NCBI GenBank assembly: GCA_019056805.1
Contig: DXJG01000005.1
Coordinates: forward strand, 1,419-33,418
Source of the DNA: Candidatus Baldrarchaeota archaeon
GTDB taxonomy: Archaea; Asgardarchaeota; Baldrarchaeia; Baldrarchaeales; DXJG01
DNA: 32,000 nucleotides
Direction of reading: 5' to 3'
In this document: positions 11,433-22,988 of the stretch, one piece after another
How positions within the stretch are numbered: the stretch's first letter is position 1
How the letters are laid out: every line of letters starts with the position of its first letter
Made by a program: the position numbers and the translations under genes
The notes under the pieces: generated by a model
The model's input: the letters and a program-made list of their open reading frames with translations, nothing else
Told to the model about the DNA's origin: nothing
Databases searched by the model: none

Positions 11433-11561
11433 GCGGGGGTGGCCGAGCCAGGTCAAAGGTTGCTAAAGGCCGATTAAAGGCGCAGGACTGAGGCACCCTC
11501 TTTTAGGGCTCGAATCCTGTGGCGCAGGCCTGCGTGGGTTCAAATCCCACCCCCCGCACCA
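11433..11561 (+). tRNA. tRNA-Leu(GAG) with two introns (D-arm 21/22 at ~11457-11477; anticodon loop 37/38 or 38/39, 20 nt, ~11494-11514)
   Basis: Acceptor GCGGGGG/CCCCCGC, A73, encoded CCA, T-arm GTGGG-TTCAAAT-CCCAC and a long variable arm. Removing 21 nt and 20 nt restores D-arm GCC...GGC and anticodon stem CAGGA/TCCTG around CT-GAG-G. BHB-like pairings are found at both junctions. Confidence 0.93.
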
Positions 11562-11926
11562 ACAATATAATTATTAGTATATGTCCTAGGATTTTATATA
11601 AGATTTTAATCTATGAATTCGACTTTTGATCTTAACTTTCCATTTTTTAACATATTATTGCTGGTGCTTTTATATGCGAGTGAAATGAGGAATGTTTTAT
11701 AATTTTGCAATGAATGTTTCGACAAAGTTATAAAATAATGTTGACATTGTTTTAGTAATCAGGGGTGTGAAATTGTACTTTAAAGCATTACTTGAAATCT
11801 GTATATGCCTAATAACTTCGGAGACACCGTATGATAGTAGTACTTAACACACATTCCAGGTTGAAAAGTACATAGAAGGGAAGTTCTTTAGCCCGTTTAG
11901 GTGTAAAAGGATGTCAGAGAATTTTT

Positions 11927-12487
11927 GTGAAAAAAGTAAAAATAACAAATTTAAGGGACATATTTAAACAATTACCAAAAAATTTTATTCTCCTAGTTAT
12001 AAGTTCCGTGGAGAACTATATTTCTGCCAATCTTGAAATTCTGCGAGTTTTGTTAAATGAAATGAAAATTTCTGGAGTTTATATTACAATCAATAGACCT
12101 TATGCCAGTTTATGCAAAATATTAAAACAGAATGGCATCAATATAGAAAAATTGTATTTTATAGATTGTGTTTCAAGTTTAGCTGGAATGCCGGTTGAAA
12201 AAACAGAAAAGTGCCGTTTTCTTAAAGGTCCATCCGCTCTCACAGACATCGGAATAGATCTTAGTGAACTCATGGAAGAAATCAAGAAGCCGTGTTTCCT
12301 ATTTCTAGATTCAATCTCAACTCTATTAACCTATAACAGTGCAGAAGCTGTTGTTTCATTTTCCCATCTGCTAATTACCAAGATGAGACTTAAAGGACTA
12401 ATGGGAGTTATCATCACTTTGGAAAAAGAATCTGAGCCTTATAAAATAATAACCCAATTTTGTGATAAAGTTATAGAGGTGAAATAA
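11927..12487 (+). CDS. KaiC/RecA-superfamily ATPase-like domain with a degenerate P-loop (DUF835/DUF7504-like)
   Basis: SGVYITINRPY, LYFIDCVS, PSALTDI, FLFLDSISTLL.YN and FCDKVIEV are KaiC-like strands. No GxxGxGKT/S. The start is uncertain: the best SD+ATG (11911) is one base out of frame. Confidence 0.75.
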   Translation: MKKVKITNLRDIFKQLPKNFILLVISSVENYISANLEILRVLLNEMKISGVYITINRPYASLCKILKQNGINIEKLYFIDCVSSLAGMPVEKTEKCRFLKGPSALTDIGIDLSELMEEIKKPCFLFLDSISTLLTYNSAEAVVSFSHLLITKMRLKGLMGVIITLEKESEPYKIITQFCDKVIEVK

Positions 12488-12828
12488 TGTCTGAATGGAA
12501 TGAACTAGGAAAGTTGGAAGAGATAAAAGCTCTTCTTGTACTGGATAAGGAAGGAAGAGAAGTCTATTCTAAAATACCCAAGAAATATGAGAAATTGAGA
12601 GAATGGGCTAAAGAATTTAATGAATTGATTAAGAATACGTTCAAGGAATTAAAAGCCGCTTCAAGACAAGTTACTATTGACTATTTTAATGGCAAAATAG
12701 CAATCGTTCGTTGCTTGGAAGAACATGTCATTTTTTTAACCTCAGAATTAATCGATATGGAGAAGTTATGTAAAAAAATTAGAGAGATCGAGATTGCAAA
12801 AAAGATAGAAGATGTATTGAGGCTTTAA
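12487..12828 (+). CDS. Roadblock/LC7 (profilin-like) domain protein
   Basis: 113 aa with helix-ALLVLDKEG-EVYS-helix-QVTIDYFNGKIAIV-HVIFLTS-helix topology. Overlaps the upstream stop (TAATG). Confidence 0.6.
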   Translation: MSEWNELGKLEEIKALLVLDKEGREVYSKIPKKYEKLREWAKEFNELIKNTFKELKAASRQVTIDYFNGKIAIVRCLEEHVIFLTSELIDMEKLCKKIREIEIAKKIEDVLRL

Positions 12829-12829
12829 T

Positions 12830-13174
12830 ATGAGAACGAGATTTAAAAAAAGGATAGAAGATATAGAACCAATGGTAACTGCCTTTTTGCACGTTACAAA
12901 AGATGGAAAAGTACTCGAACAAACAAAATCGGAAAAAGCACCTAAAATCACAGCAAAGTTTCTATCTAATTCCGTAAAACTCGTAGAATTGGCGTGTGAA
13001 CTTAGTTCTGAGTTTAATTTGGGTAGCCTCCAAACAATAAGTATGATGGGGAAAAAAGGAAAACTTGATTTGCATATCCTCCTACATCCCAGCTCACCAG
13101 ATCTTTTTGGTATCATCTTTACTGAAAAGCCAAGCCTTGAGGAAAAAATTAAGAAAGCTTTCAAGGGGTTATAA
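12830..13174 (+). CDS. Roadblock/LC7 (MglB/LAMTOR-like) domain protein
   Basis: 114 aa; VTAFLHVTKDGKVLE and FNLGSLQTISMMGKKGKLDLHIL are characteristic Roadblock strands. Confidence 0.68.
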   Translation: MRTRFKKRIEDIEPMVTAFLHVTKDGKVLEQTKSEKAPKITAKFLSNSVKLVELACELSSEFNLGSLQTISMMGKKGKLDLHILLHPSSPDLFGIIFTEKPSLEEKIKKAFKGL

Positions 13175-13176
13175 AA

Positions 13177-13811
13177 GTGACTCTACTTGAACAATGGCTA
13201 TACTGGACACAAATCGCCTGTATAGTAATGTCAACTGTATTGACAGGGTTCATGGGGTATATATACCTCCTTAAAAGGGACCCCCCATTCTTATATGGGC
13301 TCTTGCTTGGTGTGTTGTTGCTATTAGAATAACTATTGGTTTATTTTTTCCATTCAGCTTTATAAGGGGCTTCATAAATGATTTCCTAACCATAAGTCAT
13401 GACTTGCTCTGGATCTTAGGATTAGCAGTGTTATTAGAAATGGGGAAAAAAGGAAAAGTGTATTTTCCTGTGCTATACCCCTCGACACATTCTATAATAA
13501 GTGCATTATCCTACTTTTACCTCGGTTCCAAAGTGTACGGAGCCATTGAAACCACGATTTTCGCTCATCCCATACTCCTGTTTATACTTTCTTGGTATTT
13601 TCACATATGTGCAAAAGTTACAAAAAACCTTGGTGCAAGAATTATCAGCATATCCTTCCTACTTTGGGCCTTTGACTACATAATATTTGGAATACCATAC
13701 TTTGGAATGGGAATAACAATCGCAGGAGCCATAGGCTGGTCCATCGGCCTTATCTTTAGAGTAACAATTTTCATAGGATTTTTAATGATGACAGTGAGAA
13801 AACAACATTAA
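13177..13811 (+). pseudogene. 7-TM membrane protein (~211 aa if rejoined) split by a 1-nt frameshift at a C6 tract (13281-13286)
   Basis: GTG 13177 (2 nt after the upstream stop) reads MTLLEQWLYWTQIACIVMSTVLTGFMGYIYLLKRDP, then stops at 13330-32. The -1 frame is open from 13275 to 13811 and continues PILIWALAWCVVAIRITIGLFF...LWILGLAVLL into the listed 13404 ORF. Seven hydrophobic segments in total. Confidence 0.8.
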
Positions 13812-14436
13812 TGAAGTTCTGAAAAATAGTGCTTAGATAGGGATCTCTGCGAAACACCCAAAGCAACATTGGAATAGTTGGTCGCAGCTAAATTTAACAT
13901 CAAAATCTTTAACTGTCCATGTCTTTAGGCGATGCAGCTTGGTTTGCCGACGACCTCCTATTCAAAATCGAAGTAGGCGGAAAAATCATGTAGGTACAAT
14001 GCGGAAGATCCGATGTTTTTGAGAAGGATCCAGTAAATGGCTAAATTATACAAGGTTACTTATTTCTTCCATCTACGAAATAATGCTAAAATAATACAAC
14101 TTATTACTTAAATCAATGACAGATCATTCAGAAATTACAGTAGTAACTAGTAAAATTCTTGCGTCATAAGTATAATTAAAAGCACTTTCCAAAATTACTG
14201 GATACTCAAGACTTACCTTAGCTTATATTGCTGTATTTTTCTCCGTTCTCATGACACAATCACCCACACAGATTGAAAGTAGCTATTAAAAAATATAGTA
14301 AAAAAGGTATTTACAAAGTTTTTTGCTTAAAACATGCCAACAAAAATACGATACAATGAAAAATATACAATATAATGAAGATAAATTTAAAAATCGTTAT
14401 TTTATAATATTATAATGAGAAAATAAGATAGAAGAT

Positions 14437-14506
14437 CCCACGGGGGGTGATCGCCATGTGGGTGACACCCCTCGTGACCACATGGAGTGACAGACCACCT
14501 CCATAA
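14437..14506 (+). other. GC-rich structured element containing a 16-codon ORF (14456-14506, MWVTPLVTTWSDRPPP): small RNA or leader/arrest-peptide gene
   Basis: 43/67 GC by hand count within very AT-rich flanks. SD GGGGGGTGAT 14442-51, ATG 14456, TAA 14504-06. TATA-like TTATAATG at 14410-17 and T-tracts at 14511-32. Three overlapping inverted repeats. Confidence 0.6.
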
Positions 14507-14697
14507 AATGTTATTTTGATATCTATTTTTTAAGTAAAAAATACTCCTCATAAAACCGCTTTTCTAGGAATTTCTAATATTAAAATATCAACCGTTGCCT
14601 TGTCTTTTAATTTACATATTGTTATCTATTTCTTTCTGAAATTCTTAAAATGCGTTGATTTTTATATTTCTAGTTTAAAATTAAAAAGTTTGAAGAA

Positions 14698-14813
14698 TGG
14701 AGCCGCCGGCGGGATTTGAACCCGCGACCACCGGATTTCTCGCTTTCGTTACGCATTAAAGTTACGAGTCCGGCGCATTCGGCTATTTTTTCTACCAGCT
14801 GTGCTACGGCGGC
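14698..14813 (-). tRNA. tRNA-Thr(CGT) with two introns (D-arm 22/23, 14 nt, 14791-14778; canonical 37/38, 26 nt, 14762-14737)
   Basis: Acceptor GCCGCCG/CGGCGGC, U73, CCA. The anticodon intron has a perfect BHB (CTCG/CGAG helix, inner CTTT/AAAG). The D intron has helix TGGT/GCCG with 3-nt bulges. Confidence 0.95.
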
Positions 14814-14901
14814 TTTTCCTCGTTTTTTTAAAAAAATAGATAAAACTTAAAGTTTTCGATTGACATTTATAGTAAAAGGACTGGTCATGGTGGTGTTTTG
14901 T

Positions 14902-15894
14902 TTGAGAGTTAGGGACATTGGTGAACGGGGGTTAATTGAGAAAATCTTTGGGATCATTGATAAATGTGATAAGGCTGTCTTACCCTTGGGGGATGATGCT
15001 GTAGGTTATCTTATTGACAATGGGTGTGTTTTGGTTGTTAATGTTGATATGCTTGTTTGGAGTACGGATGTTCCTCCTGGGATGTCTTTTAGGCAGGTTG
15101 GACGGAAGATTGTTACGATGTGTGTTAGTGATGTTGCTGTTAAGGGTGCAAAACCACTTGGTATTCTTCTTTCTATCGGAATACCGAAAGATTTTCCGGT
15201 TAAAGATGTGGAGGAGATTGTTAGAGGTGTTAATGAAGGAAGTCGTGAATATGATACCTATTTGTTAGGTGGAGATACTAATGAGTGTAATGAGGTTATT
15301 TTAGATGGAATAGCTTTTGGGATAGTTGATAGGGATTATTTGGTTACACGTAGTGGAGCGAATCCTGGAGATATCTTGGCTATTACTGGATACTTTGGTT
15401 ACACGGCTGCAGGACTTAAAATATTACTTGAAAATATGTCCGTTCCAACTGATATTAGGAAAAAGTTTCTAGAGACTGTTTATAATCCTAGGGCAAAAGT
15501 AAAAGAAGCAATAGCATTGGCTAAAAGTAGAACATTAACGTCTAGCATTGATAGTAGTGATGGCCTTGCATGGTCATTATATGAATTGGGTAAATCTAGT
15601 GGTGTTGGTTTTATCGTGGAAAACTTGCCAATCCCTGAGGAAGTTAAAAAATTTGCTGAAATTCACGACTTAGACCCTTATGATCTAGCTTTATATGGCG
15701 GGGAAGAATTTGAGCTTGTAGTAACTGTTAAACCAGCTACGTGGGAAAAAGCTGTGGAAGCGGTTAAAAAGGTGGGAGGAACCTTAATTAAGATGGGAAA
15801 AGTTACAAAAGATAAGAAAATCGTTCTTGTAGATAAAGACGGAGTTGAGAGGAAAATAGAGCCACGTGGATACGAACATTTCATAGATAACTGA
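14902..15894 (+). CDS. thiL: Thiamine-monophosphate kinase
   Basis: IGERGLI, GDDA, DMLV...D, VSDVAVKGAKP, LLGGDTN, RSGANPGD.LAITG..G, IDSSDGLA..L, ALYGGEEFELV, RGYEHF. TTG 14902 follows SD GGTGGTG. Confidence 0.95.
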   Translation: MRVRDIGERGLIEKIFGIIDKCDKAVLPLGDDAVGYLIDNGCVLVVNVDMLVWSTDVPPGMSFRQVGRKIVTMCVSDVAVKGAKPLGILLSIGIPKDFPVKDVEEIVRGVNEGSREYDTYLLGGDTNECNEVILDGIAFGIVDRDYLVTRSGANPGDILAITGYFGYTAAGLKILLENMSVPTDIRKKFLETVYNPRAKVKEAIALAKSRTLTSSIDSSDGLAWSLYELGKSSGVGFIVENLPIPEEVKKFAEIHDLDPYDLALYGGEEFELVVTVKPATWEKAVEAVKKVGGTLIKMGKVTKDKKIVLVDKDGVERKIEPRGYEHFIDN

Positions 15895-15907
15895 GGTGTG
15901 TAGAAGG

Positions 15908-17620
15908 GTGAAAGTAACCTTATTGGATGGATATGTAGATGAGCCTACGTGTCTCGGTGTACCCCCTTATATTTCTCCATATGTAAGATATACTGCGGGA
16001 GCAATATGGGCGGCGAATTCATCAGCCCAGATAAAGTATTTTACTATTGATGAAGTTAGAGAAAGTAGCAAAGACTTTTATAAGACGGTGGAAACCTCTG
16101 ATTTATTTATTGTGATTTTTGGTGTTGCTGTTCCCGGAAAATATTTGGGAGGAAAACCAGCAACTCCGAGGGAGATTTTTAATTTAGCGTCGAGGATAGA
16201 AAATCCTGTTAAGGTTATTGGAGGTCCAGCTGCTAGATTTGGTAGTGGAGTTAGGGGTGGTATGGTTGTAAGGGATGTTTCTAAGTTTGAAGATGTTTTT
16301 GACTTAGTCGCTATAGGTGATTTGGAAGTAATTATTTATGATTTAATTTTGGAGAAATTAAGGGTAAATAAGGTAGATCCTACGAGTACAAGAAAGTCTG
16401 CACATAGTATAGCTGAATATGCGATAAGAGGAGCAAAAATAGTTACACAACATCCGAGATATCCAAAGGTTATTTGTGAAATTGAAACATACCGTGGATG
16501 TAGTCGAAAAATCACAGGTGGATGTTCTTTTTGTACTACTGCCGCATATTACGGGTTACCAGATTTTAGACCCGTAAAAGACATAGTGCTAGAAGTAGAG
16601 GCGATCTATAAGCATGGTGTAAAATATTTTAGGCTTGGTAATCAACCTGATCTTTTTGCATATCAAGCTAAGGGTGTTGGGGAATTAGAATTTCCAAGAC
16701 CAAATCCAAGAGCGATCAAAAAATTGTATCAAGGTATTAGAACTGTTGCTCCTGACTGTTATTTATGGATGGATAATGCAAATCCTGGTACAATTGCACA
16801 TCACCCTGAGGAGTCTAGAGAAATAGCAAAAATCATAGTAACATATAATACACCAGGAGATGTTGCAGCATTCGGTATAGAGTCAGCAGACCCAGATGTA
16901 ATAAAGTTAAACAATCTTAAGTGCACTCCGGAGGAGGCCATGAAAGCAATAGAGATAATATATGAAGTAGGAAAGGAAAGAGGATGGAATGGTCTGCCAA
17001 AGCTTCTTCCAGGACTAAATTTTGTTTTTGGGCTTATAGGGGAAACCGAAAAAACTTACGAATTAAATTACCTGTTTTTAAAAGAAGTTCTGGAAAGAGG
17101 TTTTCTTGTTCGTAGAATAAATCTGCGGCAGGTGCTTGTGTTTCCGGGTACAAGAATGTGGAAAGTGGGAACAAAAATTCTGAGAAGAAATTATCACCTT
17201 TTTAAGAAGTGGAGTCAAAAAATAAGGGATGAAATAGATATTCCAATGTTAAAAAGAGTAATTCCAGTGGGAACTGTTCTTAAAGAAGTTATAACGGAGA
17301 GACATTTTGGGAAAAGAACTTACGCAAGGCAATTAGGCACGTATCCAATAACCACAATAATCCCTGATGAAATGCCTCTAAACATAACACTTAATGTAAA
17401 AATCATAGATCATCAAGCGAGATCAACGATTGTAGTACCCTATCCTCTTGACATAAACAAAGCATCAATAAGACTTCTTTCCGCAATCCCACAAATAGGG
17501 AGGAAGAGAGCAGCAAGAATAATAAAAAATAGACCAATCAAAAACCTACAACATCTCGAAGCCATTTTAGATAATAAAACAATAGCAGAACACATATACA
17601 AAAACTACATAATACTATAG
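15908..17620 (+). CDS. Radical SAM enzyme with C-terminal TRAM-like and helix-hairpin-helix domains (COG1031-type, function unknown)
   Basis: LLDGYVDEP.CLGVPPYISPYVRY N-terminus, ETYRGCSRKITGGCSFC (CX7CX2C), FRLGNQPD, FGIESAD, LPGLNFVFGL.GET and C-terminal INKAS...L..IP.IG.KRA..I (HhH). Start GTG 15908 or 15896. Confidence 0.88.
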   Translation: MKVTLLDGYVDEPTCLGVPPYISPYVRYTAGAIWAANSSAQIKYFTIDEVRESSKDFYKTVETSDLFIVIFGVAVPGKYLGGKPATPREIFNLASRIENPVKVIGGPAARFGSGVRGGMVVRDVSKFEDVFDLVAIGDLEVIIYDLILEKLRVNKVDPTSTRKSAHSIAEYAIRGAKIVTQHPRYPKVICEIETYRGCSRKITGGCSFCTTAAYYGLPDFRPVKDIVLEVEAIYKHGVKYFRLGNQPDLFAYQAKGVGELEFPRPNPRAIKKLYQGIRTVAPDCYLWMDNANPGTIAHHPEESREIAKIIVTYNTPGDVAAFGIESADPDVIKLNNLKCTPEEAMKAIEIIYEVGKERGWNGLPKLLPGLNFVFGLIGETEKTYELNYLFLKEVLERGFLVRRINLRQVLVFPGTRMWKVGTKILRRNYHLFKKWSQKIRDEIDIPMLKRVIPVGTVLKEVITERHFGKRTYARQLGTYPITTIIPDEMPLNITLNVKIIDHQARSTIVVPYPLDINKASIRLLSAIPQIGRKRAARIIKNRPIKNLQHLEAILDNKTIAEHIYKNYIIL

Positions 17621-17629
17621 AGGGAAAAG

Positions 17630-17738
17630 TGGCGGGCCCGGTGGGATTCGAACCCACGACCACCGGCTATCTCCGGATAGCTTAGAAGGCCGGCGCCCTT
17701 TCAGGTTTTTGATTGTTATCCTGCTAGGCCACGGGCCC
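17630..17738 (-). tRNA. tRNA-Arg(TCT) with two introns (D-loop 20a/21, 18 nt, 17717-17700; canonical 37/38, 14 nt, 17682-17669)
   Basis: Acceptor GGGCCCG/CGGGCCC, G73, CCA, T-arm GTGGG-TTCGAAT-CCCAC. BHB central helices CAGG/CCTG (D) and CTTC/GGAG (anticodon). Confidence 0.95.
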
Positions 17739-21863: not shown

Positions 21864-22988
21864 CTAGTCTAATGATTCTATACCGAAGTCAACATTTGTC
21901 CCTTTATTTTTTTCGAGTAGTACTTCGGCAAGATCATCTTCGGACTCTACAGCGTAGGGAGACTTTACACCGGAAATTATTAAGGTTATTCGAACAGCTC
22001 CTTTGAGCTCATTGTCAATTATTGCTCCCCAGATAATTTCTGCGTCAGATTCGAGTTTTGAGGCTATATTTTCAACTATAATTTCAGCCTCACGTAGGGT
22101 TAAATCCTGACCACCGCCAATGTTTATTAATGCTCCTTTTGCTCCATTGATATCGACGTCTAGCAAAGGATTCTGTAAAGCCTTTTTTACTGCAATTTCT
22201 GCTCTGTTTTCTCCTTCCGCTTCACTCATGGAAATAAGAGCCAAACCGCCATCTTGCATAACTGCTTTAACATCCGCAAAGTCTAAGTTTACAAGTCCTG
22301 GCTTCGTAACGAGTTCAGCGATTCCTCTAACTCCTCTAATTAATATTTCGTCCGCTACCCTGAAAGCTTCAGCAATAGATAAGTTTGGAACCATTTCAGT
22401 TAGTTTCTCGTTCGGGATAACTATGACAGTGTCGCAAACATTTAAAAGATTTTTTAACCCCATCAGAGCGTTTTTCATACGCTTCCTACCTTCTATTCTG
22501 AAAGGTAAAGTACAAATACTAATTGTAAGTGCGCCTTGATCTTTTGCAGCTTCGGCTATAACGGGGGAAGCTCCTGTTCCTGTTCCTCCTCCTAAACCAC
22601 ATGTAATAAACACTAGATCAGCTGTCACTGCTTCTTTTATTTCTTCATAACTTTCTTTTGCTGCGGCTTCTCCTATGGCTGGATTATTTCCAGCTCCTAA
22701 TCCCCCAGTTAATTTTCTACCGATTAAGAGTTTATGGTGAGCATCTGTGTAGAGAAGGTCTTGGGCGTCGGTGTTTACAGCAAGTGTCTCTGCACCATCA
22801 ATTCCAACTTCCATTAGCCTTGTTATAGCGTTGTTTCCCGCTCCCCCTACACCGACAACCAAGATTTTTGTTTTTGCCTCTTCTAATATTCTTTGAAGTT
22901 CCTCATCTACATATTTGGTATTGAAACGGGTTTTATTCTCAGAAATAAGTCTCTCTCTTTCCCTTATTTTTTCTATTATCTGCTCCAT
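21864..22988 (-). CDS. ftsZ: Cell division protein FtsZ (FtsZ1-type context)
   Basis: [47 protein letters not shown] (T7 loop). Confidence 0.98.

Follow-up and report, generated by a model that had tools for sequence, protein, structure and literature searches.

Three tRNA genes, each interrupted twice, lie between positions 11433 and 17738 of the window, by which we mean the whole 32,000-nt stretch of contig DXJG01000005.1 that was analysed. The question raised by this locus is whether these are working genes whose inserts are all spliced out, including those at unusual places in the D-arm, and whether such an intron load is new. The first-pass annotation, which was made from the letters alone, had proposed two introns per gene including a non-canonical D-arm intron, and this was borne out in all three genes, with all six inserts at the proposed places. 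The introns were placed by reading the sequence and aligning it to compact tRNAs, followed by manual correction. A blind search by removal of bulge-helix-bulge (BHB) motifs was over-fitted and invented nested introns, and it was replaced by the alignment to compact tRNAs.

The tRNA-Leu(GAG) gene (11433-11561, +) encodes CCA and would give a mature tRNA of 88 nt. Its D-arm intron at 21/22 (11457-11477, +; 21 nt) forms the central helix GGTC:GATT, in which two of the four pairs are G-U, and the intron helix is present, while the anticodon-loop intron at 38/39 (11495-11514, +; 20 nt) forms the helix TGAG:CTCG and has no exon-side helix. The second intron had been placed earlier at either 37/38 or 38/39, and only the latter register is supported, with 4/4 pairs, because in the register scan 37/38 pairs at just one of the four positions, even though it would give A38 as in an intron-free orthologue from the same order (G004), which aligns exon for exon. 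An intron at 38/39 would leave C38 in the mature tRNA. A pattern search of 151 Asgard genomes for compact Leu(GAG) genes gave that of G004 only, and thus no intron-free gene with C38. The tRNA-Thr(CGT) gene (14698-14813, -; CCA encoded, mature 76 nt) contains a 14-nt intron at 22/23 in the D-arm (14778-14791, -), with the helix TGGT:GCCG, and a 26-nt intron at the canonical position 37/38 (14737-14762, -). The tRNA-Arg(TCT) gene (17630-17738, -; CCA encoded, mature 77 nt) has an 18-nt D-loop intron at 20a/21 (17700-17717, -), with the perfect 4-bp helix CAGG:CCTG, and a 14-nt intron at the canonical 37/38 (17669-17682, -), with the helix CTTC:GGAG.

All six introns show a 4-bp central helix with 4/4 pairs, bordered at the exon-intron junctions by two bulges of 3 nt each, and the three D-arm helices are exactly those read in the first pass. 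By shuffling each intron in place, the probability of a 4/4 helix was found to be 0.0002-0.046. Within ±3 nt, 4/4 pairing was limited to the chosen register, except that the Thr D intron can also pair 4/4 in one further register, there without flanking pairs. The strict motif with both flanking helices (hBHBh') is present in full in the Thr 37/38 intron only; in four of the other introns one flank is complete. Directly flanking pairs are missing altogether from the Arg 20a/21 intron, which therefore carries a relaxed motif, the most relaxed among the six. Aligned globally, the three D-arm introns, which had been noted to share no sequence, are only 43-56% alike; for inserts that are short and A-rich, such values are unremarkable. 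Excision of both inserts restores the canonical cloverleaf, and ARAGORN then correctly names Leu(gag), Thr(cgt) and Arg(tct). In the unspliced window, ARAGORN at its default settings reported no tRNA genes, and with introns allowed it called two genes wrongly as Ser and Phe and missed Thr. The Rfam search recovered Thr(CGT) as an RF00005 match with two inserts (47.2 bits), and it matched only the gene ends of Leu(GAG) and Arg(TCT). The expectation that standard annotation would miss or mis-call these genes was thus correct.

The assembly is a draft metagenome-assembled genome (91% complete, 3.6% contamination), so the genes might be pseudogenes or assembly chimeras. This explanation is already largely refuted and is extremely improbable. 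The exons are intact and near-identical to those of orthologues, and separately assembled contigs from two runs of one study (one of them possibly the source) span the genes with zero differences. No intron-free duplicates of the three tRNAs were found in this assembly; each anticodon occurs once, and no junction-spanning 20-mers of the spliced forms occur in it. At 91% completeness, there is still a small chance that an intact duplicate lies in the unassembled part. Moreover, the same architecture is present in congeners. The two Leu introns and the two Thr introns recur in G001, and the two Arg introns in G003, at the same positions, with changed cores and with helices that still pair. The Leu D-arm insert of G001 lies in the same or an adjacent register (perhaps one base shifted) and has a different core, and its 38/39 intron keeps the identical helix. 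Its Thr D-arm intron is 15 nt long with the helix TGGT:GCCA, and its Thr 37/38 intron is 28 nt long with the helix unchanged. In G003, the Arg 20a/21 helix is identical and likewise lacks flanks, and the 37/38 position holds a different, 29-nt intron with the helix CTTC:GAGG. The relatives are consistent with lineage-specific gain or loss of introns and with selection that acts on the motif and not on the sequence of the intron. The D-arm introns discussed here may be gains of the DXJG01 branch or may have disappeared from its sister family; G004, which belongs to the other family of the order, is a single outgroup genome and cannot give the direction. Its Thr(CGT) gene has a single intron, at 32/33.

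The genome encodes the enzymes that such introns would need. Two EndA paralogues of 184 and 178 aa represent separate genes for a catalytic and a structural subunit. The 184-aa α subunit aligns with the Aeropyrum subunit at E 1e-44, ungapped across the specificity loop, and it keeps the loop lysine and the Tyr-His-Lys triad, whereas the 178-aa paralogue has neither the specificity loop nor the catalytic histidine. The (αβ)2 EndA of Aeropyrum pernix (PDB 3p1z/3ajv) likewise consists of two paralogues, the catalytic one with the loop, lysine and triad. Of the broad-specificity endonuclease types named in the first pass, an (αβ)2 EndA with a specificity loop is thus encoded. RtcB is also encoded (E 4e-183). 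EndA was found in all 41 Asgard genomes searched, mostly with two matches each, and an (αβ)2 EndA with an L1 loop was already reported in Asgard archaea (Kaneta et al., 2018, PMC5829648). Among the papers found, none describes an assay of a Baldrarchaeia EndA. A recent preprint regards EndA as a permissive background and not as the cause of the Asgard intron load (Goswami et al., 2026, bioRxiv 10.64898/2026.10.13.758758).

We consider it highly likely that the Leu(GAG), Thr(CGT) and Arg(TCT) genes are functional and single-copy, and that their introns are of the ordinary, protein-spliced archaeal type, cut by (αβ)2 EndA, with the exons joined by RtcB. In the folded precursor, each intron boundary would form a BHB or a relaxed variant of it, the heterotetrameric (αβ)2 endonuclease, whose catalytic subunit has an L1/CSL loop that permits relaxed motifs, would cut both ends of the intron, and RtcB would ligate the exons. 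Cleavage and ligation in the cell are expected here by analogy with established archaeal biochemistry. Alternatively, only the anticodon-loop introns could be removed, and the D-arm inserts could be kept unspliced as enlarged D-loops of the mature tRNAs. ARAGORN still calls a Thr tRNA when the D insert is not removed, and the preprint describes some D-arm insertions without a canonical motif and states that splicing has yet to be demonstrated for any of its new Asgard intervening sequences (Goswami et al., 2026). On the other hand, in all three D-arm inserts the correct register yields a 4/4 helix whose ends resemble bulges, their helices keep pairing in congeners while the core drifts, and the G004 orthologues are compact at the D-arm insert sites. 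In addition, the inserts at 21/22 and 22/23 lie at the start of the 3' strand of the D-stem. Retention of the D-arm inserts is therefore very improbable, and removal of all six introns is the reading that we prefer.

The most relaxed of the motifs leads to a wider idea. The bare 4-bp helix of Arg 20a/21, conserved in a congener, may mark an EndA that is more permissive than any assayed enzyme, and the tRNA load would then belong to a broader expansion of BHB introns that also reaches the mRNAs of this lineage. We put this forward tentatively, as a rather unlikely reading.

The first pass had also suggested pervasive intron invasion of the tRNA genes. By a census of the assembly, with manual correction of the His and initiator-Met genes, introns were identified in 38 of 43 complete tRNA genes, and 23 of the 43 have two or three; the total of 69 introns corresponds to 1.60 per gene, so the suggestion holds genome-wide. 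A canonical BHB was found in 44 of 67 scored introns, compared with 2.5% in the shifted null and 1.7% in the shuffled null, a contrast that is to be read as an upper figure, as the boundaries had been tuned toward the motif. Several genes stand out individually. The initiator tRNA-Met gene (G000 C1:6742-6882, +) is interrupted at 7/8, where the acceptor stem ends, by a 31-nt intron whose central helix is perfect, and the first 7 nt recur just upstream. The tRNA-Tyr gene (G000 C9:265553-265746, -) has three introns, one of them of 55 nt at 37/38, and the tRNA-Trp gene (G000 C9:383) enters an assembly gap within its long intron. In tRNA-Leu(CAG) (G000 C6:68169-68316, +), the near-invariant U is replaced by C33, which also occurs in the congeners G001 and G002, and G004 has U33. 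The 37/38 helix of this gene has two of four pairs with C33 and would have three with U33; C-to-U editing and a tolerated variant are the candidate readings. Two genes parse as Lys(TTT) (G000 C9:551-662, +, and C17:116189-116343, -) and four as CAT, and Ile(GAT) was not found in the census of the assembly; this combination could reflect a mis-parse, an assembly gap or contamination.

It had further been claimed that each D-arm helix is built on the invariant G18G19. This holds for the three introns of the window and fails as a rule. The central helix always consists of the exon bases -6 to -3 from the cut, so its content is fixed by the position, and introns at 20a/21-22/23 include G18 and/or G19. 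The 26 D-arm introns of the census comprise ten at 15/16, two at 18/19 and fourteen at 20a/21-22/23; the helix contains G18 and/or G19 in 14 of them and neither in the other 12 (at 15/16 and 18/19). The G18G19 pattern is real and needs no separate explanation. A specific mechanism that targets introns to G18G19, or a spread between tRNA genes by Thermoproteales-like transposition, is improbable. The 14 introns with G18 and/or G19 in the helix could speak for targeting, but the commonest D-arm site, 15/16, uses the D-stem. For transposition, one intron pair across isotypes exceeds 80% identity (Leu-CAA variable arm and Thr-TGT 22/23, 84% alike), but the remaining pairs above 75% are isoacceptors at a single position, in line with the 1.5% of Asgard introns shared across tRNA types according to the preprint (Goswami et al., 2026). 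The sharing of many intron families across tRNA types, as in Thermoproteales, was not found in this genome. A recurrent relaxed motif was also seen at 15/16: in seven of the ten introns there, the helix has 3/4 pairs, and its first position is taken by a purine-purine mismatch opposite G10.

How far this load is new depends on the host. FtsZ (374 aa; 21864-22988, -; Pfam Tubulin and FtsZ_C) was used as a lineage marker only. It is 87% identical to FtsZ of three genomes, two of which (Yap30.bin4.67 and AUK032) are listed in a published GTDB table under Asgardarchaeota and Baldrarchaeia, with DXJG01 as both family and genus. As a search of the genome for 16S gave no match, the lineage was assigned from FtsZ identity, the same-genus grouping and the published table. 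The host is an Asgard archaeon of the Baldrarchaeia, and, judging by its three nearest relatives, it belongs to genus DXJG01. The first-pass annotation had stressed an FtsZ-bearing lineage with many tRNA introns; FtsZ is indeed present, but the surprise is gone, because Asgard archaea possess FtsZ (PMC12993045) and intron-rich tRNAs are published for them, so there is no paradox.

Introns were reported in 92-95% of the tRNA genes of three Asgard genomes, more than half of them with several, and Freyarchaeia genes for Leu-GAG, Thr-CGT and Arg-TCT are tabulated with 3-4 introns (Valentin-Alvarado et al., 2024, PMC11291895). [quoted passage not shown] The published intron-rich Asgard tRNAs share with the present ones the phylum, the multi-intron genes, the non-canonical D-arm introns missed by annotators and the (αβ)2 EndA, and the same phenotype is seen here in a genome with DXJG01 relatives, in which most tRNA genes are interrupted, many of them multiply and non-canonically. 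Published work already covers the heavy tRNA intron load of Asgard archaea and, very probably, that of the DXJG01 family, and with the lineage already known for such tRNAs, the novelty implied earlier falls away. Thermoproteales have multi-intron tRNAs with up to three introns per gene (Sugahara, 2008; Fujishima, 2010; reviewed in PMC4033280). They resemble our case in BHB introns at non-canonical positions and in an (αβ)2 EndA with the CSL, but they belong to another phylum and have intron families common to several tRNA types, of which a single such pair occurs here. The result is the correct annotation of three genes that standard tools miss or mis-call, with added detail and no new principle. 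It also provides exact substrates for a cleavage assay, from the strict motif (Thr 37/38) to the bare helix (Arg 20a/21).

Some other features of the window and the genome were recorded. Candidate mRNA introns, in the form of strict BHB hairpins that bring long ORFs together when removed, occur at G000 C9:155012-155043 (-), C10:39163-39195 (+) and C17:158950-158971 (-); a strict scan of the window's contig found no ORF-joining BHB introns. A glyA-family gene of this genome is split and contains a stop. Next to a KaiC-like ATPase and two small genes, which precede it, lies a membrane-protein gene (13178-13811, +) whose frame is broken within a run of six C (C6) near 13281-13286; a contig from another study has identical letters. 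In a GC-rich island at 14443-14507 (+), a strong ribosome-binding site accompanies an ORF of 16 codons that ends in W-x-D-R-P-P-P-stop; G001 and G004 keep this ending with synonymous changes. The island can also form two hairpins (z -3.6), for which G001 shows compensatory changes, and the ORF possibly encodes a stalling or leader peptide.
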